Source of the DNA: Escherichia coli
Lineage (GTDB): Bacteria; Pseudomonadota; Gammaproteobacteria; Enterobacterales; Enterobacteriaceae
Reading direction: 5' to 3' (one strand)
NCBI RefSeq assembly: GCF_041248615.1
Contig: NZ_CP158426.1
Length of the DNA stretch: 64,000 nt
Shown: piece by piece, positions 2,821 through 19,295 of the stretch
How positions within the stretch are numbered: the stretch's first letter is position 1
Layout of the letters: each line of letters opens with the position of its first letter
Program-made: the position numbers and the translations under genes
Notes under the pieces: model-generated
Databases searched by the model: none
What the model was told of the DNA's origin: nothing
Seen by the model: the letters and a program-made list of their open reading frames with translations, nothing else

Positions 2821-4554
2821 ATGCATTCCACAGAAGTCCAGGCTAAACCCCTTTTTAGCTGGAAAGCCCTGGGTTGGGCACTGCTCTACTTTTGGTTTTT
2901 CTCTACTCTGCTACAGGCCATTATTTACATCAGTGGTTATAGTGGCACTAACGGCATTCGCGACTCGCTGTTATTCAGTTCGCTGTGGTTGATCCCGGTA
3001 TTCCTCTTTCCGAAGCGGATCAAAATTATTGCCGCAGTGATCGGCGTGGTGCTATGGGCGGCCTCTCTGGCGGCGCTGTGCTACTACGTCATCTACGGTC
3101 AGGAGTTCTCGCAGAGCGTTCTGTTTGTGATGTTTGAAACCAACACCAACGAAGCCAGCGAGTATTTAAGCCAGTATTTCAGCCTGAAAATTGTGCTTAT
3201 CGCGCTGGCCTATACGGCAGTGGCAGTTCTGCTGTGGACACGCCTGCGCCCGGTCTATATTCCAAAGCCGTGGCGTTATGTTGTCTCTTTTGCCCTACTT
3301 TATGGCTTGATTCTGCATCCGATCGCCATGAATACGTTTATCAAAAACAAGCCGTTTGAGAAAACGTTGGATAACCTGGCATCGCGTATGGAGCCTGCCG
3401 CACCGTGGCAATTCCTGACCGGCTATTATCAGTATCGTCAGCAACTAAACTCGCTAACAAAGCTACTGAATGAAAATAATGCCTTGCCGCCGCTGGCGAA
3501 TTTCAAAGATGAATCGGGTAACGAACCGCGCACTTTAGTGCTGGTGATTGGCGAGTCGACCCAGCGTGGCCGCATGAGTCTGTACGGTTATCCGCGTGAA
3601 ACCACGCCGGAGCTGGATGCGCTGCATAAAACCGATCCGAATCTGACCGTGTTTAATAACGTGGTGACGTCTCGTCCTTACACCATTGAAATACTGCAAC
3701 AGGCGCTGACCTTTGCCAATGAAAAGAACCCGGACCTGTACCTGACACAGCCGTCGCTGATGAACATGATGAAACAGGCGGGTTATAAAACCTTCTGGAT
3801 CACCAACCAGCAGACGATGACCGCCCGCAATACCATGCTGACGGTATTTTCGCGCCAGACCGACAAGCAGTACTACATGAACCAGCAACGTACGCAGAGT
3901 GCGCGTGAATACGACACCAACGTGCTGAAGCCGTTCCAGGAAGTGCTGAAGGACCCTGCGCCGAAGAAACTGATCATCGTTCATCTGCTGGGTACGCATA
4001 TCAAGTACAAGTACCGTTATCCGGAAGATCAGGGCAAATTTGACGGTAATACAGAGCATGTTCCACCGGGATTAAACGCAGAAGAGCTGGAGTCATATAA
4101 TGATTATGACAATGCTAACCTGTACAACGATCACGTGGTTGCCAGCCTGATTAAAGACTTTAAAGCAGCAGACCCGAACGGTTTCCTGGTTTATTTCTCT
4201 GACCACGGTGAAGAGGTTTACGACACGCCGCCGCACAAAACTCAGGGGCGTAATGAAGACAACCCGACGCGTCATATGTACACCATTCCGTTCCTGCTGT
4301 GGACGTCAGAAAAATGGCAAGCGACTCATCCGCGTGATTTCTCACAGGATGTTGATCGTAAATACAGCCTGGCGGAACTGATCCACACCTGGTCAGATTT
4401 GGCGGGCTTATCTTACGACGGTTACGATCCAACCCGTTCAGTGGTGAATCCGCAGTTCAAAGAAACTACCCGCTGGATTGGTAACCCGTACAAGAAAAAC
4501 GCGCTGATCGATTACGACACGCTGCCATATGGCGACCAGGTAGGTAATCAGTAA
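2821..4554 (+). CDS. eptC: Phosphoethanolamine transferase EptC (YijP), 577 aa
   Basis: ORF 2776..4554; N-terminal multi-pass hydrophobic region followed by a sulfatase-like periplasmic domain. Start placed at MHSTEVQAKP, the recognised EptC N-terminus. Confidence 0.9.
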   Translation: MHSTEVQAKPLFSWKALGWALLYFWFFSTLLQAIIYISGYSGTNGIRDSLLFSSLWLIPVFLFPKRIKIIAAVIGVVLWAASLAALCYYVIYGQEFSQSVLFVMFETNTNEASEYLSQYFSLKIVLIALAYTAVAVLLWTRLRPVYIPKPWRYVVSFALLYGLILHPIAMNTFIKNKPFEKTLDNLASRMEPAAPWQFLTGYYQYRQQLNSLTKLLNENNALPPLANFKDESGNEPRTLVLVIGESTQRGRMSLYGYPRETTPELDALHKTDPNLTVFNNVVTSRPYTIEILQQALTFANEKNPDLYLTQPSLMNMMKQAGYKTFWITNQQTMTARNTMLTVFSRQTDKQYYMNQQRTQSAREYDTNVLKPFQEVLKDPAPKKLIIVHLLGTHIKYKYRYPEDQGKFDGNTEHVPPGLNAEELESYNDYDNANLYNDHVVASLIKDFKAADPNGFLVYFSDHGEEVYDTPPHKTQGRNEDNPTRHMYTIPFLLWTSEKWQATHPRDFSQDVDRKYSLAELIHTWSDLAGLSYDGYDPTRSVVNPQFKETTRWIGNPYKKNALIDYDTLPYGDQVGNQ

Positions 4555-4628
4555 ATGACCTTTGTATCGCGTCTGGCGCTATTTGCCGGATGCGATACTG
4601 TCGCAATGTTTACATCGAACTCCCCTCA

Positions 4629-4656
4629 GGCCACACTTTTCAGGTGGCCTTTTTTA
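4629..4656 (+). terminator. Rho-independent terminator downstream of eptC
   Basis: Hairpin ggccac...gtggcc followed by tttttt. Confidence 0.6.
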
Positions 4657-4702
4657 ATAATGCCAGTTACTGTTTTCTCGTCTACATACCTAAGGGAATA
4701 AC

Positions 4703-5554
4703 ATGTATCACGACGTCAGCTATCTGCTCTCCCGCCTGATCAACGGCCCGCTGTCCCTGCGCCAGATTTACTTTGCCAGCAGTAACGGCCCGGTGCCCGA
4801 TCTTGCGTATCAGGTCGATTTTCCACGACTGGAAATTGTGCTGGAAGGTGAGTTTGTTGATACCGGCGCTGGAGCAACGTTAGTTCCCGGCGATGTACTA
4901 TACGTTCCCGCTGGTGGCTGGAATTTTCCACAATGGCAAGCCCCCGCTACTACCTTTAGCGTGCTGTTTGGCAAACAGCAACTCGGCTTCAGCGTCGTGC
5001 AATGGGATGGCAAACAATATCAAAATCTGGCGAAGCAACACGTCGCCCGACGCGGCCCACGCATAGGTTCCTTTCTGCTACAAACGCTCAATGAAATGCA
5101 AATGCAGCCGCAGGAGCAGCAAACGGCAAGGCTTATCGTCGCCAGCCTGCTTAGCCACTGCCGCGATTTGCTTGGCAGCCAAATCCAGACCGCCTCACGC
5201 AGCCAGGCACTATTCGAAGCTATTCGCGATTATATCGACGAACGCTATGCCTCCGCGCTTACCCGCGAATCTGTCGCACAGGCATTCTATATTTCGCCAA
5301 ATTACCTCTCGCACCTGTTTCAAAAAACGGGGGCCATTGGTTTTAACGAATACCTGAATCACACGCGACTGGAGCACGCTAAGACGTTATTGAAAGGCTA
5401 TGACCTGAAGGTAAAAGAAGTGGCGCACGCCTGCGGCTTTGTCGACAGCAACTACTTCTGCCGTCTGTTTCGTAAAAATACCGAACGCTCACCGTCGGAA
5501 TATCGTCGGCAGTACCACAGCCAACTGACAGAAAAACCGACTACTCCAGAATGA
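4703..5554 (+). CDS. yijO: AraC-family transcriptional regulator YijO, 283 aa
   Basis: ORF 4703..5554; C-terminal AraC-type HTH region (ISPNYLSHLF...NYFCRLFRK). Confidence 0.88.
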   Translation: MYHDVSYLLSRLINGPLSLRQIYFASSNGPVPDLAYQVDFPRLEIVLEGEFVDTGAGATLVPGDVLYVPAGGWNFPQWQAPATTFSVLFGKQQLGFSVVQWDGKQYQNLAKQHVARRGPRIGSFLLQTLNEMQMQPQEQQTARLIVASLLSHCRDLLGSQIQTASRSQALFEAIRDYIDERYASALTRESVAQAFYISPNYLSHLFQKTGAIGFNEYLNHTRLEHAKTLLKGYDLKVKEVAHACGFVDSNYFCRLFRKNTERSPSEYRRQYHSQLTEKPTTPE

Positions 5555-5882
5555 GATGGGTTTGCTGCGGCGCAGAAAGCACTTTGCGTACCGCGCTCAT
5601 CACCCGCTGCGGCTCACGCAGGAAAGCGTAGATGCTGCATTGCACATAGCGGCAATGTTCAAATCGCTCAGCACCGGCAAGCTCGATATCCGTAATCAAC
5701 AGCGCAACATCCGCCCGGCGGATATCCTCGTCCGCTAAACGATTCTCCGTTCCCAACGCGCCCTGGGTTTCAATGCTGACGCCCCACTTCTCTAACTGGC
5801 ACAACTTTTCCAGCCGTTCCGCCGCCATATATGTATGCGCCACGCCGCTTACGCAGGCGGTTACTGCCACCAGGTATGCCAT
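5541..5882 (-). CDS. frwD: PTS fructose-like IIB component FrwD, 113 aa
   Basis: ORF 5541..5966 trimmed to the MAYLVAVTACVSGVAHTYMAAE start; IIB-type CxxGxAHTYMA motif. Confidence 0.88.
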   Translation of the reverse strand: MAYLVAVTACVSGVAHTYMAAERLEKLCQLEKWGVSIETQGALGTENRLADEDIRRADVALLITDIELAGAERFEHCRYVQCSIYAFLREPQRVMSAVRKVLSAPQQTHLILE

Positions 5883-5883
5883 T

Positions 5884-6762
5884 TTAACCTCCCACGGTAA
5901 CCTGAAATCCGGCCCATTCTGCCATTTCACGCATCGTTGCCACATCGGCTGACGACGGCGCAGCAACCTCTTTCATCGACCATGTTTTCCCCAGCAGGCG
6001 GTATTTCGGCTCGCCGTACTGATGAAACGGTAACAGATGGATCTGCTTGATATTCAGCGGGATCAGCACGTCCAGCGCCTGCTGCATATTCTCCCGGCTG
6101 AGCGTGAAACCAGGGATCAGCGGTAAACGCGGGATCACGTTGACGCCCTCACTCACCAGCAAACGCAGATTCTCCAGCACGCGTGGCAGATTCATCTTCA
6201 CCACATCCCGCGCCTGAGTCGCGTCCATAATTTTTAAATCGAACAACACTTCATCGCACAATTTCGCCAGCGGTAGCAGCTTGCTGGCTGGCGCGTCTCC
6301 GGCAGTTTCAATGGCGCATGACACGCCCCACAACCGCAGCCGCTGTAAAAAACGGGTAGCAAACTCCGCCTGCATTAACACTTCGCCGCCAGAAAGCGTG
6401 ACGCCGCCGCCGGACGTGCGAAAGAAAATGTCATCTTTCATCACTTCACGTTCCAGCGCGTCAAGGCTGATATCGCGGCCAATCCGTTCAAACGCCCCGG
6501 AGGGGCATTCATCCGCATCACGCAAACATTTCGCACAGTGCAGACATTTCGCCTCTCTGCGTACCGTCTGGATTTTGCCGGAGATCGACTCCGGATTAGC
6601 ACACCATGGGCAAAGATGCGGACAGCCTTTAAAAAAGACCACCGTACGAATGCCCTCGCCGTCATTCAGTGAATAACGCTGAATGTTGAAAATGCGCGCC
6701 ACATCATTGCGGCGCGTTTCCACAACGTTACAGCTGATGCGCTGTCCGGCGGATGATGTCAT
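5884..6762 (-). CDS. pflC: Pyruvate formate-lyase 2 activating enzyme PflC (radical SAM), 292 aa
   Basis: ORF 5884..6831 trimmed to MTSSAGQ; radical-SAM CxxxCxxC cluster (GCPHLCPWCANPES) and additional Cys motifs. Confidence 0.9.
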   Translation of the reverse strand: MTSSAGQRISCNVVETRRNDVARIFNIQRYSLNDGEGIRTVVFFKGCPHLCPWCANPESISGKIQTVRREAKCLHCAKCLRDADECPSGAFERIGRDISLDALEREVMKDDIFFRTSGGGVTLSGGEVLMQAEFATRFLQRLRLWGVSCAIETAGDAPASKLLPLAKLCDEVLFDLKIMDATQARDVVKMNLPRVLENLRLLVSEGVNVIPRLPLIPGFTLSRENMQQALDVLIPLNIKQIHLLPFHQYGEPKYRLLGKTWSMKEVAAPSSADVATMREMAEWAGFQVTVGG

Positions 6763-9025
6763 CCTGGATCTCCTTCGACAATTCGACAAAGAAGGCGCTG
6801 TATCCGGCAACGCGCACCACCAGCCCGGCATAATCTTGTGGGCGCTGTTGCGCTTCCCGCAACGTGTCGGCGTTCACCACGTTAAACTGAATGTGTTGTA
6901 ACTTAAGCTGGGTAAATGCCCGTAAGAAGTCGGCCAGTTTGCGTAATCCCGCTTCACCTTCCAGGGTCGCCGGAGTGAATTTCACGTTCAGCAACGTACC
7001 GTTAGACAGCAGCGTATTATCGAGCTTACTGACTGACTTCAGTACCGCCGTTGGCCCTTGTGCGTCCTGACCCAGCATAGGTGACAAGCCGCCGTCTGCC
7101 AGTTGTTCCCCGGCAAAACGACCGTCTAGCGTCGCGCCAACCACCGATCCCAACGGGACGTGAGCAGAAACGGTATACGATCCCGGCGTGAAGTAGCCGC
7201 CGCGCGGGTTCTGGTATTTTTCCACTTCTTTGCAGTAGTGGCGTAACAGTTCGGCGCTGATGTTATCCACCTCGTCGATATCGTTACCGTATTTCTCGAA
7301 GCGGTTAATTAAGCGAGCACGGACTTTTTCGCCTTCTGGCGTTGCGAAGTTGGCTTTTAATACCGACAGCAATTCGTCAAAACTTAAACGCTGTTGCTCA
7401 AAAATCATACCTTTCAACGCATGGAGAGAATCGCTCAGGTTGGCGATACCGATCCCCTGTACGCCGGAGAAGTTATAACGCGCACCGCCATCGGTAATAT
7501 CGCGGCCTTTTTCCAGACAATCGCTGATAAAAGACGAGAGCAGCGGTACAGGTGCCCAGTCACGGTGACCGATATCGCAAATATTGCTGCCCTCAACCAT
7601 CAGGGTGATGTAGTGGCTGATCTTGGCGCGGATCTGCTCCAGTAAACCTTCATAAGTCAGCGCAGCATTGCCTTCATTTTCATGCAGGCAGATTTCCATC
7701 ACTTTCAGCAGATTAAACATCGCGATGTCATGCAAGCCGTAGGTTCTGCCGGGAATAGATAATTCCACACAGCCCACTACGGAATAGTCGCGCGCATCTT
7801 CCAGCGAAACGCCACGGTTGAGGAACGCTGGCACTACCACTTCATCGTTAAAGATTTGCGGAATACCGGTGCCGAGGCGAATGGTTTCTGCGGTTTTCAT
7901 CAGGAACGGCGTGTCGATCAAGGCGTTAGTGCGCACCCCCAGGTTCGGTTGCGGTAATTGCACGCTTTGATAAGCGTCAAGGCAAAGGAACGAAAGCACG
8001 TTCACCGCGCTACGTCCGTTCTCGGTTAACCCGCCGAGCAGTGCGGTATAGCCGGTCGGGAAACCGGCGAAATAACGCGCGCTACTGGTGGAGCGCAACA
8101 GCACGATGTCGTTGCATTTCACCCATAAAGATTCGAGCAGTTCTTTCAGGAACGCCGGATCTTCGCCCTGGGTTAAAGATGCCTGATAGAACGGCAACAT
8201 ATACTGGTCGAAGCGCCCTAAAGACAGCGAACTGGCGTTGGATTCGTATTGCAGAATGATGTTCATGTACCAGAATAACTGGCACGCCTGCCAGAACGTC
8301 TGCGGCTTATGTTCGGCGTTATGGCGAGAGATCTCCGCAATAGTCAGCAGTTCTTCGCGACGCTGGGCATCTGTGCAGTTTGCCGCCATCGTTTCCGCCA
8401 GTTCGGCGTAACGCAAAATGTGTTTCTGCGAGGCTTCGAGCAGTAACAGCGCTGCCTGATAAAAGTGATTCTCCGGCTGTTGCTGACAATGTTGCTGCAT
8501 CTGCGCTACCAGCTCACCCAGCCCGTGATTCAGCAGGCGCGGGTAATCAATAATAATGTGCCCCTGGCCTTTATCCGTCTGGTTGATGCTGAAAATCTGC
8601 GTGCTGGTCGCGGCTTTTACTTCATCCGTCATCTGCCCGTTGATGAAATCTTTCATCGAACGTTTTTCCCAGTACGGGAACAACTCTTCACGGTAGATAC
8701 GTTTATCTTCTTCGCTGATAGCAAAGCGGTCCTGCGGACGCGTCGGGAATTGATCCAGCTCTTTCAGCAGCCAGTAAGGGTCCATTTCCGGCGACATAAT
8801 TCCGGCGCGCGGTTTCACCGTACGGTTACCGGCAATCAGTTCTTCATCACGAATCGATATTTCAACATGTTCAAGGATATACGCTGTTGCTTTCGCCCGG
8901 CGCAATATCACCGGTTCGCCTTCGGTTTGCCGATGGCTGGCGGTATAAAGCAGCGCCCGCTCCAGCGAGATTTCACGGGTATTGGCAAACAGTGCAGTTT
9001 TGAGGCGAGAGATACGATTCGTCAT
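6728..9025 (-). CDS. pflD: Pyruvate formate-lyase-like glycyl radical enzyme PflD, 765 aa
   Basis: ORF 6728..9025; C-terminal glycyl-radical motif RVAGYSAFF; 35-bp overlap with pflC, typical operon arrangement. Confidence 0.93.
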   Translation of the reverse strand: MTNRISRLKTALFANTREISLERALLYTASHRQTEGEPVILRRAKATAYILEHVEISIRDEELIAGNRTVKPRAGIMSPEMDPYWLLKELDQFPTRPQDRFAISEEDKRIYREELFPYWEKRSMKDFINGQMTDEVKAATSTQIFSINQTDKGQGHIIIDYPRLLNHGLGELVAQMQQHCQQQPENHFYQAALLLLEASQKHILRYAELAETMAANCTDAQRREELLTIAEISRHNAEHKPQTFWQACQLFWYMNIILQYESNASSLSLGRFDQYMLPFYQASLTQGEDPAFLKELLESLWVKCNDIVLLRSTSSARYFAGFPTGYTALLGGLTENGRSAVNVLSFLCLDAYQSVQLPQPNLGVRTNALIDTPFLMKTAETIRLGTGIPQIFNDEVVVPAFLNRGVSLEDARDYSVVGCVELSIPGRTYGLHDIAMFNLLKVMEICLHENEGNAALTYEGLLEQIRAKISHYITLMVEGSNICDIGHRDWAPVPLLSSFISDCLEKGRDITDGGARYNFSGVQGIGIANLSDSLHALKGMIFEQQRLSFDELLSVLKANFATPEGEKVRARLINRFEKYGNDIDEVDNISAELLRHYCKEVEKYQNPRGGYFTPGSYTVSAHVPLGSVVGATLDGRFAGEQLADGGLSPMLGQDAQGPTAVLKSVSKLDNTLLSNGTLLNVKFTPATLEGEAGLRKLADFLRAFTQLKLQHIQFNVVNADTLREAQQRPQDYAGLVVRVAGYSAFFVELSKEIQDDIIRRTAHQL

Positions 9026-9075
9026 GAGGAACTCCTGTGGGAAAGCGAACCCGCCCTTACGGGCGGGATAAGAAC

Positions 9076-9396
9076 TTAAGCGGTTTGTGCCAGGTGAGCT
9101 TCAATTTTGCTCATAATGGCATCAGCGCGTTTTACCGCGTCGCTGATGTTGACGCGCACGATGGTCTTGCCAGCAAAACGCTCTTCAAACTTGATGCCGA
9201 TATCTTTGGTCAGAATCACCATATCGGCGCTCGCCACGTCTTCCGCAGTCAGTTCATTTTCCAGACCAATCGAGCCCTGGGTTTCTACTTTCACTTCCCA
9301 GCCTTTCGCTTTCGCGGCACTTTCCAGCGCCTCTGCCGCCATATAGGTATGGGCAACACCAGATGGACACGCGGTTACTGCAATAATTTTCGTCAT
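9076..9396 (-). CDS. frwB: PTS fructose-like IIB component FrwB, 106 aa
   Basis: ORF 9076..9396; IIB motif CPSGVAHTYMAAEALE. Confidence 0.9.
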   Translation of the reverse strand: MTKIIAVTACPSGVAHTYMAAEALESAAKAKGWEVKVETQGSIGLENELTAEDVASADMVILTKDIGIKFEERFAGKTIVRVNISDAVKRADAIMSKIEAHLAQTA

Positions 9397-9410
9397 GGCT
9401 CGTTCCTCAA

Positions 9411-10490
9411 TTAATTAATTTCAAAATCCAAATCCAGGTCGTCTTCTTTTTCATCAGTCGAAGACCCATTATTACGCGCCAGACTTTTCAGCACGTTCAC
9501 GCAGACTGCCGTCACAACCGCCCCGACAGCCACTGCTGCGATATAACCCAGCTTGCCTTCAACCACCGGCAGCACAATCAGACCGCCCCAGCCTGCATAG
9601 CACTGCGCACCGACCAGCGCCGCAGTTACTGCACCACAAACTGAACCGACCATGATGGAAGGAATAACACGCAGCGGATCGGCAGCGGCGAAAGGAATCG
9701 CCCCTTCAGTAACCCCAACGCACCCCATCACCAACGCCGCCTTGCCGGTTTCGCGCTCTTCTGCGGAGAAATTTTTACGACCAATCAGCGTCGCCAGCCC
9801 CATCCCCAGCGGCGGGATACAAATACCCACGGCAGCAATGGCCACCACGGTATATACACCCTGAGCAACGCAAATCAGCATGAAGGCATAGGCCACTTTG
9901 TTAACCGGACCGCCCATATCGAACGCCAGCATCAGACCCATGATCACCGCCAGCATAACAATGCTGCCCTGCTGCATCCCCTGAAGCCACTGAGTCAGGC
10001 TGTTGGTCAATGCCCCCACAGGCTCGCCCAGCCCCCACATCATGATGCCTGCGGTAATCAGTGTGCCGACGATCGGAATGATGAAGATTGGCATCACCGA
10101 GCGCAGAACTTTATGCACCGGAATTTTCTTCAGGTAATGCACCACGATGCCGCCAATAATCCCGGCGATCAGCGCACCAAAGAAGCCCGCACCAAAGCTG
10201 TTGCCGACCCAGGCACCGATAGCGCACGGGGCCAGCGCAGAGCGTTCTGCAATGGAATAACCAATGTAAGCAGCGAGGAAAGGCACCATCAGCGTCAAAC
10301 CTGCAACGCCGATATCAAACAGTTTTTTCAGATTCGGATCGGCTACGGCATCCGGCACTGCGCCTTTGCCATACAACATGACGGAAACCGCCAGCAAAAT
10401 ACCGCCCGATACCACGAAGGGAATCATGTGTGAAACGCCCGTCATTAAGTGCTGACGGGTATTTTTCAGGATCTGCACCAACTCATTCAT
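9411..10490 (-). CDS. frwC: PTS fructose-like IIC permease FrwC, 359 aa
   Basis: ORF 9411..10511 trimmed to MNELVQILKNT; polytopic membrane protein. Confidence 0.88.
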   Translation of the reverse strand: MNELVQILKNTRQHLMTGVSHMIPFVVSGGILLAVSVMLYGKGAVPDAVADPNLKKLFDIGVAGLTLMVPFLAAYIGYSIAERSALAPCAIGAWVGNSFGAGFFGALIAGIIGGIVVHYLKKIPVHKVLRSVMPIFIIPIVGTLITAGIMMWGLGEPVGALTNSLTQWLQGMQQGSIVMLAVIMGLMLAFDMGGPVNKVAYAFMLICVAQGVYTVVAIAAVGICIPPLGMGLATLIGRKNFSAEERETGKAALVMGCVGVTEGAIPFAAADPLRVIPSIMVGSVCGAVTAALVGAQCYAGWGGLIVLPVVEGKLGYIAAVAVGAVVTAVCVNVLKSLARNNGSSTDEKEDDLDLDFEIN

Positions 10491-10798
10491 AAGCTGCTCC
10501 CGGGCTTGCAAAAGCCCATGTCCATATTTTTGATGGAGGAAACAATAGGCAATCGCAGGCGGAGCAAACAGTGGATAAAAAGGCCATTTACTGGACTTTT
10601 GTAATATCAGTACAAAAATGCGATCCGCCTCATAACTTGCGGCAACCCGGAAGCATGCCGCAAAACGGCGTCTTGTGAGACGCGTCGCAAATTGACGGTT
10701 ACATTACATTTGTCCAGCTTTTGGCAGATTTGTCACATGGCAGGCCGTTGCCGTGCGCTCTTATCCTGTAAACAGAAAACCGTACCGGGAGAGAGGCA

Positions 10799-13300
10799 AT
10801 GGCCCTGATTGTGGAATTTATTTGTGAGCTACCTAACGGCGTACATGCGCGCCCGGCAAGCCACGTTGAAACGCTGTGTAATACTTTTTCATCACAAATT
10901 GAGTGGCATAACCTGCGCACTGACCGCAAGGGCAACGCCAAAAGCGCCCTTGCGCTGATTGGCACCGATACGCTGGTGGGCGATAACTGCCAGTTACTGA
11001 TTTCCGGGGCCGACGAACAGGAAGCGCACCAGCGTTTAAGCCAATGGCTGCGCGATGAATTCCCCCACTGCGACGCACCGCTGGCGGAAGTAAAATCTGA
11101 CGAACTGGAACCACTGCCGGTTTCACTGACCAATCTGAATCCGCGAATTATCCGCGCCCGCACCGTGTGCAGCGGTAGCGCAGGCGGCATTCTGACGCCG
11201 ATCTCTTCTTTAGATCTCAATGCGCTGGGTAATCTTCCCGCTGCCAAAGGCGTTGATGCCGAACAATCCGCACTGGAAAACGGCCTGACGCTGGTACTGA
11301 AAAACATAGAGTTTCGTCTGCTGGATAGCGACGGTGCTACCAGCGCGATTCTGGAAGCGCACCGATCCCTGGCTGGCGATACTTCCCTGCGCGAACATTT
11401 ACTGGCAGGCGTCAGCGAGGGATTAAGCTGTGCCGAAGCGATTGTCGCCAGTGCACACCACTTCTGCGAAGAGTTCGCCCGTTCCAGCAGCAGCTACCTG
11501 CAAGAACGCGCCCTGGACGTACGCGACGTCTGCTTCCAGTTACTCCAGCAAATCTACGGTGAGCAACGCTTCCCGGCACCGGGCAAACTGACGCAGCCCG
11601 CCATTTGTATGGCTGATGAACTAACCCCCAGCCAGTTCCTCGAACTGGATAAAAATCACCTCAAAGGATTGTTGCTCAAAAGCGGCGGCACCACCTCACA
11701 TACCGTAATTCTTGCCCGTTCGTTCAACATTCCGACGCTGGTTGGTGTGGATATTGATGCCCTTACCCCGTGGCAACATCAAACGATTTATATCGACGGC
11801 AACGCCGGAGCGATTGTGGTTGAGCCAGGGGAAGCCGTAGCCCGTTATTATCAGCAAGAAGCCCGCGTACAGGATGCCCTGCGTGAGCAACAGCGTGTCT
11901 GGCTGACCCAACAAGCCCGTACCGCTGATGGTATCCGCATTGAAATTGCTGCTAACATCGCTCACTCCGTGGAAGCGCAGGCCGCATTCGGCAATGGTGC
12001 GGAAGGAGTTGGTTTGTTCCGCACTGAAATGCTCTATATGGATCGCACCAGCGCACCGGGCGAAAGCGAGCTGTACAACATTTTTTGTCAGGCGCTGGAG
12101 TCCGCCAACGGACGCAGCATTATTGTGCGCACTATGGATATTGGCGGTGACAAACCCGTTGATTATCTGAACATTCCCGCAGAGGCAAACCCGTTCCTCG
12201 GTTATCGCGCCGTGCGTATTTATGAAGAGTACGCGTCGTTATTTACCACACAACTACGGTCGATTCTCCGTGCCTCCGCTCACGGCAGCCTGAAAATCAT
12301 GATCCCGATGATCTCTTCAATGGAAGAGATCTTATGGGTGAAAGAAAAACTGGCGGAAGCCAAACAGCAACTGCGCAATGAACATATTCCGTTTGATGAG
12401 AAGATCCAGCTTGGCATCATGCTTGAAGTGCCGTCGGTGATGTTCATCATCGATCAATGCTGTGAAGAGATTGATTTCTTTAGTATTGGTAGTAATGACC
12501 TGACGCAATATCTGCTGGCAGTAGATCGCGATAACGCTAAGGTTACTCGTCACTACAACAGCCTGAATCCGGCATTCTTACGGGCGCTCGATTACGCCGT
12601 GCAGGCGGTGCATCGCCAGGGCAAATGGATTGGTCTGTGCGGTGAACTGGGAGCGAAAGGTTCCGTGCTGCCGTTGCTGGTCGGTTTAGGGCTGGATGAG
12701 CTGAGCATGAGCGCACCATCAATTCCGGCGGCGAAAGCGCGGATGGCGCAACTTGATAGCCGCGAATGCCGCCAGTTGCTCAACCAGGCAATGGCCTGCC
12801 GTACTTCGCTGGAAGTGGAACACCTGCTGGCGCAATTCCGCATGACCCAACAGGACGCGCCGCTGGTCACCGCCGAGTGCATCACGCTGGAAAGCGACTG
12901 GCGCAGCAAAGAAGAAGTGCTGAAAGGCATGACCGATAACCTGCTACTGGCGGGCCGCTGCCGCTATCCGCGTAAACTGGAAGCCGACTTGTGGGCACGC
13001 GAGGCCGTTTTCTCTACCGGTCTGGGCTTTAGTTTTGCCATTCCCCACAGCAAATCGGAACATATTGAGCAATCCACCATCAGCGTAGCGCGTCTGCAAG
13101 CGCCGGTGCGCTGGGGCGATGATGAAGCACAATTCATCATTATGTTAACCCTGAACAAACATGCTGCGGGCGATCAGCACATGCGCATTTTCTCGCGCCT
13201 CGCTCGCCGCATCATGCACGAAGAATTCCGTAACGCGCTGGTTAACGCCGCCTCTGCCGACGCTATCGCCAGCCTGCTGCAACATGAACTGGAACTGTAA
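10799..13300 (+). CDS. ptsA: Multiphosphoryl transfer PTS protein PtsA/FrwA (HPr-like, EI-like and IIA domains), 833 aa
   Basis: ORF 10799..13300; PEP-utilising enzyme signature ([21 protein letters not shown]) and a C-terminal IIA-like domain. Confidence 0.93.
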
Positions 13301-13311
13301 AAGGAAACATC

Positions 13312-13974
13312 ATGGAACTGTATCTGGACACCGCTAACGTCGCAGAAGTCGAACGTCTGGCACGTATATTCCCGATTGCCGGGGTGACAACTAACCCGAG
13401 CATTATCGCTGCCAGCAAGGAGTCCATCTGGGAAGTGCTGCCGCGCCTGCAAAAAGCGATCGGTGATGAGGGCATTCTGTTTGCTCAGACCATGAGCCGT
13501 GATGCGCAGGGAATGGTGGAAGAAGCGAAGCGCCTGCGCGACACCATTCCGGGCATTGTGGTTAAAATCCCGGTGACTTCCGAAGGTCTGGCAGCAATTA
13601 AAATACTGAAAAAAGAGGGTATTACTACACTTGGCACCGCTGTATATAGCGCCGCACAAGGGTTATTAGCCGCACTGGCAGGGGCAAAATACGTTGCTCC
13701 GTATGTTAACCGCGTAGATGCCCAGGGCGGAGACGGCATTCGTACGGTTCAGGAGCTGCAAGCGCTGTTAGAAATGCACGCACCAGAAAGCATGGTGCTG
13801 GCGGCCAGCTTTAAAACGCCGCGTCAGGCGCTGGACTGTTTACTGGCAGGATGTGAATCCATCACCCTGCCCTTAGATGTAGCGCAACAAATGCTCAACA
13901 CCCCTGCGGTAGAGTCAGCTATAGAGAAGTTCGAACACGACTGGAATGCCGCATTTGGCACTACTCATCTCTAA
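13312..13974 (+). CDS. fsaB: Fructose-6-phosphate aldolase 2, 220 aa
   Basis: ORF 13312..13974; transaldolase-like TIM-barrel sequence ([13 protein letters not shown]...). Confidence 0.93.
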
Positions 13975-13984
13975 AGGAGCAATT

Positions 13985-15088
13985 ATGGACCGCATTATTC
14001 AATCACCGGGTAAATACATCCAGGGCGCTGATGTGATTAATCGTCTGGGCGAATACCTGAAGCCGCTGGCAGAACGCTGGTTAGTGGTGGGTGACAAATT
14101 TGTTTTAGGTTTTGCTCAATCCACTGTCGAGAAAAGCTTTAAAGATGCTGGACTGGTAGTAGAAATTGCGCCGTTTGGCGGTGAATGTTCGCAAAATGAG
14201 ATCGACCGTCTGCGTGGCATCGCGGAGACTGCGCAGTGTGGCGCAATTCTCGGTATCGGTGGCGGAAAAACTCTCGATACTGCCAAAGCACTGGCACATT
14301 TCATGGGTGTTCCGGTAGCGATCGCACCGACTATCGCCTCTACCGACGCACCGTGCAGCGCATTGTCTGTTATCTACACCGATGATGGTGAATTTGACCG
14401 CTATCTGATGTTGCCAAATAACCCGAATATGGTCATTGTCGACACCAAAATCGTCGCTGGCGCACCTGCACGTCTGTTAGCGGCGGGTATCGGCGATGCG
14501 CTGGCAACCTGGTTTGAAGCACGCGCCTGTTCCCGTAGCGGCGCGACCACTATGGCGGGCGGCAAGTGTACCCAGGCGGCGCTGGCACTGGCAGAACTGT
14601 GCTACAACACTCTGCTGGAAGAAGGCGAAAAAGCGATGCTTGCCGCCGAACAGCATGTAGTGACTCCGGCGCTGGAGCGCGTGATTGAAGCGAACACCTA
14701 TTTGAGCGGCGTTGGTTTTGAAAGCGGCGGGCTGGCGGCGGCTCACGCGGTGCATAACGGCCTGACCGCTATCCCGGACGCGCATCACTATTACCACGGT
14801 GAAAAAGTGGCATTTGGTACGCTGACGCAGCTGGTTCTGGAAAATGCGCCGGTGGAGGAAATCGAAACCGTAGCTGCACTTAGCCATGCGGTAGGTTTGC
14901 CAATAACTCTCGCTCAACTGGATATTAAAGAAGATGTCCCGGCGAAAATGCGAATTGTGGCAGAAGCGGCATGTGCAGAAGGTGAAACCATCCACAACAT
15001 GCCTGGCGGCGCGACGCCAGATCAGGTTTACGCTGCACTGCTGGTAGCCGACCAGTACGGTCAGCGTTTCCTGCAAGAGTGGGAATAA
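13985..15088 (+). CDS. gldA: Glycerol dehydrogenase, 367 aa
   Basis: ORF 13946..15088 trimmed to [17 protein letters not shown]; iron-type alcohol dehydrogenase fold ([13 protein letters not shown]). Confidence 0.93.
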
Positions 15089-15159
15089 CCTACTCCAAAC
15101 TCCCGGATTGTCCGGGAGTTTGAGAGTGCAGGCAAAGTGGCTCACTCGTCACTGCGGGC

Positions 15160-15275
15160 ATGTTTTTCCCCCTCGCCCTTTCAGGGAGAGGGTCGGGATG
15201 AGGGTAAATATTCGCCCCGGAGCTGGCCTGTTCCCCTCACCCTAACCCTCTCCCCAAAGGGGAGAGGGGACTGTT
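15160..15275. repeat. Intergenic GC-rich palindromic repeat, boxC/RSA-like, two subunits
   Basis: ccctcgccctttcagggagagggtcggg and cccctcaccctaaccctctccccaaaggggagagggg; an inverted copy of the same family lies at 60340..60500. Confidence 0.7.
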
Positions 15276-15418
15276 CGAGCACTTTTTATACGTTATCACC
15301 CGTCTGAAACTCACACGTTGTTCAGGAATTTTTTATCCGCTTCTGGACATTTTCTCTACAGAACAATCGTTAGCCCGGAAGGTCGAATCTGTGACTCTTA
15401 TTTTCACGGACGAACCAG

Positions 15419-16036
15419 ATGAAAGCTTCACTGGCGCTGGTCAGCCTGCTAACGGCGTTTACCAGCAACTCCTTAAAATCTCCGGCCGTTCCACCAACCG
15501 TGGTACAAATCCAGGCCAACACCAACCTTGCCATCGCAGACGGTGCCAGACAGCAAATCGGCAGCACGCTATTTTACGATCCGGCGTATGTGCAGCTTAC
15601 CTATCCTGGCGGTGATGTCCCGCAAGAACGCGGCGTATGTTCCGATGTGGTGATCCGCGCCTTGCGCAGCCAGAAGGTCGATTTGCAGAAACTGGTTCAC
15701 GAAGATATGGCGAAGAATTTTGCTGAGTACCCGCAAAAATGGCAGTTAAAGCGCCCGGACAGCAACATCGATCACCGTCGGGTGCCTAATCTGGAAACCT
15801 GGTTTAGCCGCCATGATAAAACACGCCCCACCAGCAAGAACCCCAGTGACTATCAAGCGGGCGATATTGTCTCCTGGCGACTGGATAACGGGCTGGCGCA
15901 TATTGGGGTGGTGTCAGATGGCTTTGCCCGCGACGGTACGCCGCTGGTGATACATAACATTGGCGCAGGCGCGCAGGAAGAAGACGTGCTGTTTAGCTGG
16001 CGGATGGTGGGGCACTATCGGTATTTTGTTAAATAA
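15419..16036 (+). CDS. yijF: Uncharacterised exported protein YijF (DUF1287 family), 205 aa
   Basis: ORF 15419..16036 with N-terminal signal peptide MKASLALVSLLTAF. Confidence 0.85.
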   Translation: MKASLALVSLLTAFTSNSLKSPAVPPTVVQIQANTNLAIADGARQQIGSTLFYDPAYVQLTYPGGDVPQERGVCSDVVIRALRSQKVDLQKLVHEDMAKNFAEYPQKWQLKRPDSNIDHRRVPNLETWFSRHDKTRPTSKNPSDYQAGDIVSWRLDNGLAHIGVVSDGFARDGTPLVIHNIGAGAQEEDVLFSWRMVGHYRYFVK

Positions 16037-16062
16037 GCGATCGCCCCACATGAAGAAAAAAT

Positions 16063-16968
16063 TCAGATGTTTTTTACACTGACAGCTTCTTTTTTCTTAC
16101 GGCTCACCAGCGCCAGTGCCAGCACAATCAGCACAATACCGCTACCTTCAACGGCCCCCGGATTCTCACCGAGCAACCACCAGGAAAAGAGTACGCCGCA
16201 AACGGGAACGGCCAGTGTGCTTAAGCTGGCAATACTGGCAGGCAAGTTTTTCAATACAAACAACCATAAGCTCCACGCCAGCGCCGTCGCCAGAATCGCA
16301 CTGTAGGCCAGAGCCCAGAACACGGTGGGCTGCCAGTCAATTTCACGTTGTGGCACCAGTAAAGCGACCGCACTCATCACCAGCGCCGCATAAAGCATCT
16401 GCCAGGATGTTAACGACAATAAATCCACGCGTGGATGGCGGGCGTATAGGCGTTTCGCGACAATCGCGCTCGCCCCCCAACTAACACCGGAGAGGATTGC
16501 CAGCAGGGCACTTTTCATCGAAGAGAAATCGAGTTGCCACGGCTGCAACACCAAAAATAAGCCGAAAGCGGCAATCAGTATCGCGAAATATTGCCCACGT
16601 CGCAGGCGTTCACCGAGAAACAACGCGGCGAAAATCACCACCCAGAACGGCATGGTATAGCTCAGGATCGCCACCTTCCCCGCTCCTCCGCTAACCAGCG
16701 CCCACTGCGCCAGGCCAACCATCCCACAGGTTTGTAACAGGGCAATGGCTAAGGTGTATTTAAACGGTGTCGGGCGCATTCCGCGACCACGTAATAAAAG
16801 GACAATGAATAAAACGAGAGCGCCGAAAATGCAGCGTAAGGCGGTGAAGTCGAAGGCACCGATGTAGCTGGTGACTTGCTTCATGAAAATCCAGCTATAA
16901 CTCCAGATAAGTGTGAGCACAACCAGGCCACTGATTGCCAGTGGGTTGCTCTTTCCTGCGGCAGACAT
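16063..16968 (-). CDS. yijE: EamA/DMT-family transporter YijE, 301 aa
   Basis: ORF 16063..17001 trimmed to [17 protein letters not shown]; about 10 TM helices. Confidence 0.85.
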
Positions 16969-17018
16969 GAGAGATCCAGTGTGTAGTTTTCCTGTGGACA
17001 CTATACGCCGGTAAAGAA

Positions 17019-17052
17019 ACTTCAGCGACTGCCATCAGGCAGTCGCTGAAGA
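17019..17052 (-). terminator. Probable terminator hairpin downstream of katG
   Basis: Inverted repeat ttcagcgactgcc/ggcagtcgctgaa immediately 3' of the katG stop; weak U-run. Confidence 0.45.
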
Positions 17053-17060
17053 AGGTCAGA

Positions 17061-19295
<2,235 letters not shown>

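Follow-up and report, generated by a model that had tools for sequence, protein, structure and literature searches.

The frw-pflDC/ptsA-fsaB-gldA cluster of Escherichia coli: a probable module for anaerobic 1,5-anhydromannitol use, with mirror-image promoters and YijO as likely activator

Introduction

What is the substrate of the frw phosphotransferase genes of Escherichia coli, and what is the reaction of the glycyl radical enzyme encoded among them? The question is raised by a locus in the DNA presented above (the window, that is, the whole stretch of 64,000 nucleotides), in which frwD, pflC, pflD, frwB and frwC on the minus strand and ptsA, fsaB and gldA on the plus strand diverge from a common control region, with the AraC-family gene yijO adjoining frwD. 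A previous description made from the DNA alone (the sequence-only reading) held that neither the substrate of the phosphotransferase system (PTS) nor the reaction of PflD had been established. This is now outdated: a literature check turned up a published substrate assignment (Ma et al. 2024, J Am Chem Soc 146:26187, doi 10.1021/jacs.4c07718), as far as that work is summarised in a 2025 review (PMC12441222), along with a deposited structure of PflD (8yjo). Papers from before 2024 called these genes enigmatic, and the “unresolved” status presumably reflects the knowledge of that time.

We regard it as very probable that the region is an E. coli core-genome module for the anaerobic use of 1,5-anhydromannitol, with two mirror-image promoters and with YijO as its likely activator. 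The frw-pflDC/ptsA-fsaB-gldA cluster belongs to the E. coli core genome, with the 11-kb block at least 80% present in 5,392 of 5,426 complete genomes of the species. A cluster that is near-universal in E. coli, already known and biochemically described in the literature leaves room for small testable additions, which here are a model of its regulation and a Pro633Leu allele of pflD.

Results and Discussion

A pathway for 1,5-anhydromannitol breakdown

As Ma et al. (2024) are summarised in the review (PMC12441222), a PTS phosphorylates 1,5-anhydroglucitol and 1,5-anhydromannitol, the resulting 6-phosphates undergo glycyl radical cleavage by YbiW and PflD to 1-deoxyfructose-6-phosphate, and E. 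coli, like many gut bacteria, can grow anaerobically by these pathways, with 1,5-anhydroglucitol among the growth substrates. The ring opened by PflD is that of the 1,5-anhydromannitol phosphate. The later steps suit FsaB and GldA, since fructose-6-phosphate aldolases (FSA) take hydroxyacetone as aldol donor (PMC7767278), GldA is a propanediol dehydrogenase, and gldA is induced by hydroxyacetone (PMC6643234).

Mapped onto the products of the cluster, the pathway would begin with the FrwC permease, FrwB and/or FrwD as EIIB, and PtsA, which together would take up the anhydro-sugar and add a phosphate at C6 from phosphoenolpyruvate. The radical-SAM activase PflC would install a glycyl radical on PflD, which would then open the ring by radical C-O cleavage to give 1-deoxyfructose-6-phosphate. 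A retro-aldol reaction of FsaB would convert this to glyceraldehyde-3-phosphate, which would enter glycolysis, and hydroxyacetone, and GldA would reduce the latter to 1,2-propanediol with regeneration of NAD+. In the original study, FsaA or FsaB reportedly splits 1-deoxyfructose-6-phosphate into glyceraldehyde-3-phosphate and hydroxyacetone, and GldA reportedly leads on to 1,2-propanediol. Each gene of the two divergent operons thereby finds a role in a single pathway. That the Frw components are the PTS acting on 1,5-anhydromannitol is assumed from gene adjacency.

PflD as a member of the dehydratase class

By its sequence, PflD is a glycyl radical enzyme (GRE) of the PFL2/dehydratase (eliminase) class, not of the pyruvate formate-lyase (PFL) family. 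It matches Pfam PF02901 over residues 1-626 (704 bits) and PF01228 over 645-747 (108 bits), and lies well above the cut-offs of NF007437 (1722 bits, cut-off 1109) and of TIGR01774, the model of the PFL2/dehydratase class (1343 bits, cut-off 678). The GCVE loop is found at residues 418-421 and the glycyl loop RVAGY at 738-742; among 134 diverse family members the loop columns hold Cys in 133, Glu in 113 and Gly in 126. The activase gene is adjacent, with pflC overlapping pflD by 35 bases, and 758 of the 765 residues of PflD (99.1%) are those of the K-12 protein in PDB 8yjo, which was deposited as “Probable dehydratase PflD”.

Dehydratases and eliminases have as their signature one catalytic Cys with Glu two residues further on (G-C-x-E), whereas PFL has a Cys-Cys pair. 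This bears on the suggestion, carried by the RefSeq names “formate C-acetyltransferase” and “[formate-C-acetyltransferase]-activating enzyme” and likewise by the name of the NCBIfam equivalog model, that PflD is an additional formate-lyase for pyruvate (or a 2-ketoacid) and PflC its activase. PflD and PflB do belong to a common superfamily, but PflD has G-C-V-E in place of the Cys-Cys pair, fails the true pyruvate formate-lyase model TIGR01255 (116 bits against a cut-off of 994), and among structures matches B12-independent glycerol dehydratase with 646 bits and PflB with 113. Its PDB depositors name it a dehydratase, and a different reaction has been published for it. A formate-lyase role is effectively refuted already and, to us, scarcely credible. 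For a protein that fails the PFL model and is nearer to glycerol dehydratase, “formate C-acetyltransferase” is thus a misleading name in RefSeq. The gene context of distant PflD relatives (43-47% identity) was set aside as uninformative for the module, one contig being too short and the other carrying an ABC-transporter-linked cluster.

The phosphorelay and the other enzymes

Of the nine proteins, all but YijO and PtsA pass NCBIfam equivalog cut-offs; YijO has AraC matches at family level only, and PtsA passes only the domain-level model for Enzyme I (EI). FrwC scores 719 bits against NF007787 (cut-off 426) and 300 bits against TIGR01427 (cut-off 158), FrwD 225 bits against NF007747 (cut-off 153) and FrwB 210 bits against NF007783 (cut-off 135). 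Both EIIB proteins have the active-site motif with its cysteine at position 10 (CVSGVAH in FrwD, CPSGVAH in FrwB). PtsA comprises the Pfam domains PTS-HPr (residues 7-84), PEP-utilisers_N (123-237), PEP-utilizers (266-337), PEP-utilizers_C (363-653) and PTS_EIIA_2 (690-829), and carries the His16 motif GVHAR. The phosphorelay is complete within the cluster, with EI, HPr and EIIA in PtsA, EIIB with an active Cys in FrwB and FrwD, and EIIC in FrwC. PflC passes NF007483 (627 bits, cut-off 326) and TIGR02494 (261 bits, cut-off 174), and has the radical-SAM motif C47-x3-C51-x2-C54 and a second Cys cluster (C73/76/79/86). FsaB passes TIGR00875 (352 bits, cut-off 246) and GldA passes NF047954 (752 bits, cut-off 700), the K-12 product name of the latter being L-1,2-propanediol dehydrogenase. 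In the annotated record NZ_LT599825.1 and in other records, RefSeq/PGAP gives ptsA the gene symbol ptsP, which is that of another gene.

The Frw components and the EIIA domain of PtsA are all members of the fructose PTS family, and PtsA was named as part of a putative PTS for anaerobic fructose catabolism in earlier work, as cited by PMC6643234. On these grounds the Frw PTS could be a transporter of fructose, cryptic or used anaerobically, and fructose could be what the cluster serves, but family membership does not fix the substrate, and fructose gives no reason for the embedded glycyl radical enzyme or for the co-inheritance of FsaB. The published pathway, in the form given by the review, starts with the phosphorylation of an anhydro-sugar by a PTS. 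We consider a fructose cluster highly improbable, and anhydro-sugar import and phosphorylation the better account of the Frw proteins, which may nevertheless have some side activity on fructose.

Mirror-image promoters in the control region

When the control region is aligned across six genera, three strongly conserved blocks stand out from otherwise variable DNA. The region is mirror-symmetric about position ~10654, with 43 matches in 90, as compared with a mean of 34.8 and a maximum of 42 in 300 dinucleotide shuffles (z = 4.5). The frwC and ptsA promoter halves can be aligned without gaps over ~95 bases, and the columns that they share are conserved in the six genera. This layout is consistent with mirror-image, activator-dependent promoters that would drive both divergent operons, each with a CRP site and a tandem operator (Table 1).

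CRP binding to the ptsA/frwC intergenic region is already published. Genomic SELEX (systematic evolution of ligands by exponential enrichment) places ptsA<>frwC among the CRP targets (PMC3105977), and in CRP chromatin immunoprecipitation sequencing (ChIP-seq) of enterotoxigenic E. coli (ETEC) H10407 the motif under the ptsA/frwC peak is the exact sequence of the frwC-side site (PMC4287617). The CRP-like site on the ptsA side is conserved as TGTGA-N6-TC(G/T)CA in six of six genera, and is kept in the reduced Citrobacter loci described below.

Each promoter half also contains an operator of ~38 bp, made up of two half-sites 20 bases apart. A palindrome, TTTTGTA/TACAAAA, was also considered as the operator and rejected, its left arm not being conserved in Lelliottia and Leclercia; its right arm, which is conserved, belongs to the tandem operator. 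If transcription is assumed to start 7 bases past each candidate -10 hexamer (~10535 on the minus strand and ~10774 on the plus strand), the CRP sites are centred at ~-92 and the operators extend from ~-71 to -34. The block CTTATCCTGT around the ptsA -10 hexamer is invariant in the window and in four reduced Citrobacter loci.

Joint inheritance of the operators, yijO and the cluster

At least 15 genera of Enterobacterales share the module as a conserved block, and in five other genera, Edwardsiella among them, yijO adjoins the cluster with an overlap that is again 14 bases long. In Edwardsiella tarda (L004, 5033-14389) the module, from yijO through ptsA-fsa, lies between uvrC/pgsA and ato genes, with no gldA adjacent, and its PflD is 91% identical to that of the window. 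This similarity in an unrelated neighbourhood suggests that the block moved horizontally.

Reduced loci are found in Citrobacter werkmanii, C. youngae, C. gillenii, two further Citrobacter species and Trabulsiella (T. guamensis). These have lost frwDCB, pflDC and ptsA, and run from yijO through the CRP site, the whole ptsA-side operator and the -10 block CTTATCCTGT to fsaB and then gldA. In Citrobacter sp. R56, remnants of the 3′ end of ptsA remain. The sequence-only reading had left yijO outside the unit; because the gene is kept beside the cluster across genera and also in the reduced loci, we count it as part of the module.

To follow the operator beyond these genomes, a degenerate pattern fitting all 12 half-regions was searched for in one genome per species (100,044 species, 298 Gb). 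It was found in 71 stretches, where by our own calculation ~0.5 would be expected by chance. Seventy of the 71 are in Enterobacterales, at the yijO/fsaB-gldA module, and the remaining one is in an archaeal metagenome-assembled genome without module genes. At 36 loci the operators form an inverted pair that, like the one in the window, is offset by 128-131 bases, and among the E. coli representative genomes of this species-wide scan there is no second operator locus. Inside the window the pattern has two matches, a number also reached by 7 of 100 shuffles. The in-window count is weak evidence when taken alone, because the pattern was derived from those very sites, and we therefore place the weight on conservation across genera and on the species-wide scan.

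We infer from co-inheritance that YijO binds both operators, and YijO would thus be the dedicated regulator, and likely activator, of the module. Its DNA-binding half is nearly invariant across genera. Pfam places HTH_18/HTH_AraC at residues 192-270 and has no match for residues 1-190; a profile search of the PDB matched only the helix-turn-helix (HTH) domain, and an AlphaFold model built from six orthologues is unusable, the confidence score pLDDT being below 50 for residues 1-166. No copy of the operator motif was found upstream of yijO, and there is accordingly no sign of autoregulation via this motif.

A fuller model, to which we give somewhat less than even weight, is that YijO and CRP activate both promoters in a mirrored araBAD-like layout, and that the signal is a downstream metabolite (e.g. 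hydroxyacetone or 1-deoxyfructose-6-phosphate) and not the imported sugar. Sensing of a downstream metabolite would explain why the reduced Citrobacter and Trabulsiella loci keep just yijO, the operator and fsaB-gldA, and would also explain the reported induction of gldA by hydroxyacetone.

The shared operators also bear on whether ptsA-fsaB-gldA might be mainly an operon for dihydroxyacetone (DHA) or glycerol fermentation that neighbours frw-pflDC by chance. GldA is required for glycerol fermentation and the literature reports that glycerol use is lowered by double deletion of fsaA and fsaB, while growth on DHA is slowed by deletion of fsaB or gldA and sped up by their overexpression (PMC6643234); the N-terminus of PtsA is weakly similar to DhaM (88 bits, which is below the cut-off). 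However, the two operons have mirror-image promoters with a common operator and are inherited jointly across genera, and their adjacency is therefore not accidental. On DHA, moreover, expression of fsaB and gldA is low and shows no induction (PMC6643234), and the physiological role of FSA was called enigmatic before 2024. An operon mainly for DHA or glycerol fermentation appears highly improbable to us, although a DHA or glycerol function is compatible with GldA having several roles, and we retain the single anhydro-sugar module as the explanation of both operons.

The Pro633Leu allele of pflD

At position 7128, a C to T change on the coding strand turns codon 633 of pflD (7127-7129, minus strand) from Pro to Leu, and the motif GATPDGR to GATLDGR. 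This is the sole difference from strain 362 across 11,001 bases. Pro is present at this site in all of 120 orthologue clusters; in the 134 diverse family members the column holds Pro in 108, Ala in 20, Val in 3, Leu in 2 and Ser in 1, and the two distant relatives that bear Leu have intact catalytic loops. The exact 61-mer with Leu633 occurs in one of the 5,426 complete E. coli genomes, and does not occur in K-12. Since the exact Leu633 protein is found under three accessions, on 9 contigs, we regard it as a genuine, clonal allele rather than an isolated error. By every criterion other than the GATPDGR motif, the sequence of PflD is still that of an orthologue. The strain may be a natural PflD hypomorph.

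Points that weigh against the assignment

Several points pull against the account given above. In the text of the review, just “a PTS” is named, and the FsaB and GldA steps are proposed from family assignments. In older work ptsA is connected with the anaerobic catabolism of fructose, and fsaB and gldA with the metabolism of dihydroxyacetone and of glycerol; for this reason the FsaB, GldA and PtsA enzymes are not to be seen as exclusive to the anhydro-sugar pathway. On the regulatory side, the link between YijO and the operators is drawn from co-inheritance, and the candidate -10 hexamers and the “-92” positions are assumptions. A consensus promoter scan of the control region found no sigma-70-like site, which is consistent with activator-dependent promoters and is not evidence for them. 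Lastly, Pro633Leu falls in a motif that is invariant among orthologues, and the pathway may be weakened in the window genome.

Gene map and integrity of the cluster

Coordinates (Table 1) are taken from the open reading frame (ORF) listing of the window and from the annotated record NZ_LT599825.1 (E. coli NRZ14408), which is 100% identical to the window. Both sources bear out the gene identities, strands and divergent layout that the sequence-only reading had described, as well as its 35-bp pflC/pflD overlap (6728-6762) and 14-bp convergent frwD/yijO overlap (5541-5554). Two of its figures need revision: the control region, put at 288 bp, measures 308 bp from 10491 to 10798, and the span of 5541-13300 omits fsaB-gldA (to 15088), which it named as part of the unit.

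Table 1. Features of the module and its control region in the window, with the reduced loci of other genomes in the last row
Feature	Position	Strand or length	Description
yijO	4703-5554	+	AraC-family gene
frwD	5541-5882	-	PTS EIIB, fructose family
pflC	5884-6762	-	radical-SAM activase for PflD
pflD	6728-9025	-	glycyl radical enzyme
frwB	9076-9396	-	PTS EIIB, fructose family
frwC	9411-10490	-	PTS EIIC membrane permease, fructose family
Divergent control region	10491-10798	308 bp	between frwC and ptsA
Candidate -10 hexamer, frwC promoter	10542-10547	-	TATTGT, in conserved block GATTGCCTATTGTTT; TATTAT in Edwardsiella
Tandem operator, frwC side	10568-10605	-	ATTACAAAAGTCCAGTAAATGGCCTTTTTATCCACTGT on minus strand
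CRP site, frwC side	10619-10634		TGCGATCCGCCTCATA; sequence of the published ChIP-seq motif
CRP-like site, ptsA side	10674-10689		TGTGAGACGCGTCGCA; 9 of 10 half-site bases match TGTGA-N6-TCACA
Tandem operator, ptsA side	10703-10740	+	ATTACATTTGTCCAGCTTTTGGCAGATTTGTCACATGG; direct repeat ATTTGTC, 20-base spacing
Candidate -10 hexamer, ptsA promoter	10762-10767	+	TATCCT; TATNCT conserved in all genera
ptsA	10799-13300	+	fused HPr - Enzyme I - EIIA(Fru) phosphorelay protein
fsaB	13312-13974	+	fructose-6-phosphate aldolase 2
gldA	13985-15088	+	L-1,2-propanediol/glycerol dehydrogenase
Reduced loci	L011 608-3489; L017 2341-5212; L026 7960-11045; L032 3693-6587; L072; L063; L047		

All nine reading frames are intact, with no internal stop in any of them, and the genes have the lengths of their K-12 counterparts, with 0-7 amino-acid differences per protein. 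Both overlaps are of unchanged length in Salmonella, Citrobacter, Lelliottia, Leclercia and Edwardsiella, and are for this reason regarded as conserved features and not as chance. An AAGGAG Shine-Dalgarno sequence inside pflD, 7 nt before the ATG of pflC, supports the pflC start codon. The frwD-yijO pair is listed as a convergent “excludon” in an RNA-seq-based survey (PMC12288877). This overlap may itself be regulatory, and transcription of the regulator gene and of the operon could interfere with each other.

Beginning 8 bases past the gldA stop codon, a perfect 12-bp stem with a 3-nt loop (15096-15122) probably marks the end of the operon. Between gldA and yijF (15160-15275) there is an imperfect palindrome, ~100 bp long and rich in GGGAGAGGG/CCCTCTCCC, whose arms measure 39 nt. 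It is an unannotated repeat that is dispersed in E. coli genomes, the median copy number being 6. This explains the median of 6 places per genome returned by the search with the 11-kb block. The element resembles the BoxC class of intergenic repeats. On the other side, between eptC and yijO (4620-4655), a GGCCAC...GTGGCC hairpin followed by a T run looks like the eptC terminator. An Rfam scan of 4000-17500 gave as its sole match a sub-threshold miRNA (28.7 bits, with a cut-off of 94), which was judged to be chance.

Significance

Correcting the record has some value, as RefSeq still calls PflD a “formate C-acetyltransferase” and Frw a “fructose” PTS, and scans that rely on annotation keep flagging the locus. 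The regulatory layout offers a cheap and concrete experiment on YijO, a remaining uncharacterised E. coli transcription factor. The pathway has some medical relevance, since 1,5-anhydroglucitol is a clinical marker of glycaemia and, in two neutropenia syndromes, gives rise to a toxic metabolite (PMC12441222).

Comparison with known systems

The closest counterpart is the cluster of E. coli K-12 MG1655 (b3945-b3954), from which the sequence-only reading had rightly said that it was known, and which has the genes, order, lengths, overlaps and 308-bp control region of the window. The two control regions differ at 5 bases, the window allele being from a different lineage.

Within E. coli, the YbiW-YbiY-FsaA system (PDB 8yjn, 8id7) is made up of a paralogous GRE, activase and FSA aldolase, and YbiW is clearly homologous to PflD (476 bits). 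The reported product, in the review's summary, is again 1-deoxyfructose-6-phosphate, but the substrate is 1,5-anhydroglucitol-6-phosphate, the gluco and not the manno epimer, and the genes are at a separate locus outside the window. The eliminase-type GREs, such as B12-independent glycerol dehydratase (PDB 1r8w), CutC, HypD and propanediol dehydratase, share with PflD the TIGR01774 fold family, the thiyl/base loop G-C-x-E, the glycyl loop RVxG-aromatic and a radical-SAM activase of their own. PflD differs in that, according to the literature, it opens the ring of a cyclic sugar phosphate and does not dehydrate a diol, and identity is ~40% or less. PflB/PflA are the source of the gene and RefSeq product names and belong to the same superfamily with the same glycyl radical chemistry, but differ in the PFL equivalog model and Cys-Cys pair that PflD lacks.

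For the promoters, the likeness is to araBAD and rhaBAD, where CRP binds at -93.5 and -92.5, respectively. The frwC and ptsA promoters resemble them in that CRP would be centred ~92 bases upstream, in their tandem direct-repeat half-sites, which are spaced by ~20 bases, would fill ~-71 to -34 and would abut a weak -35, and in the AraC-family gene encoded alongside, which here is yijO. The frw-ptsA region differs in that the unit is mirror-duplicated to serve two divergent operons, and in that the role of YijO and the transcription starts are predictions.

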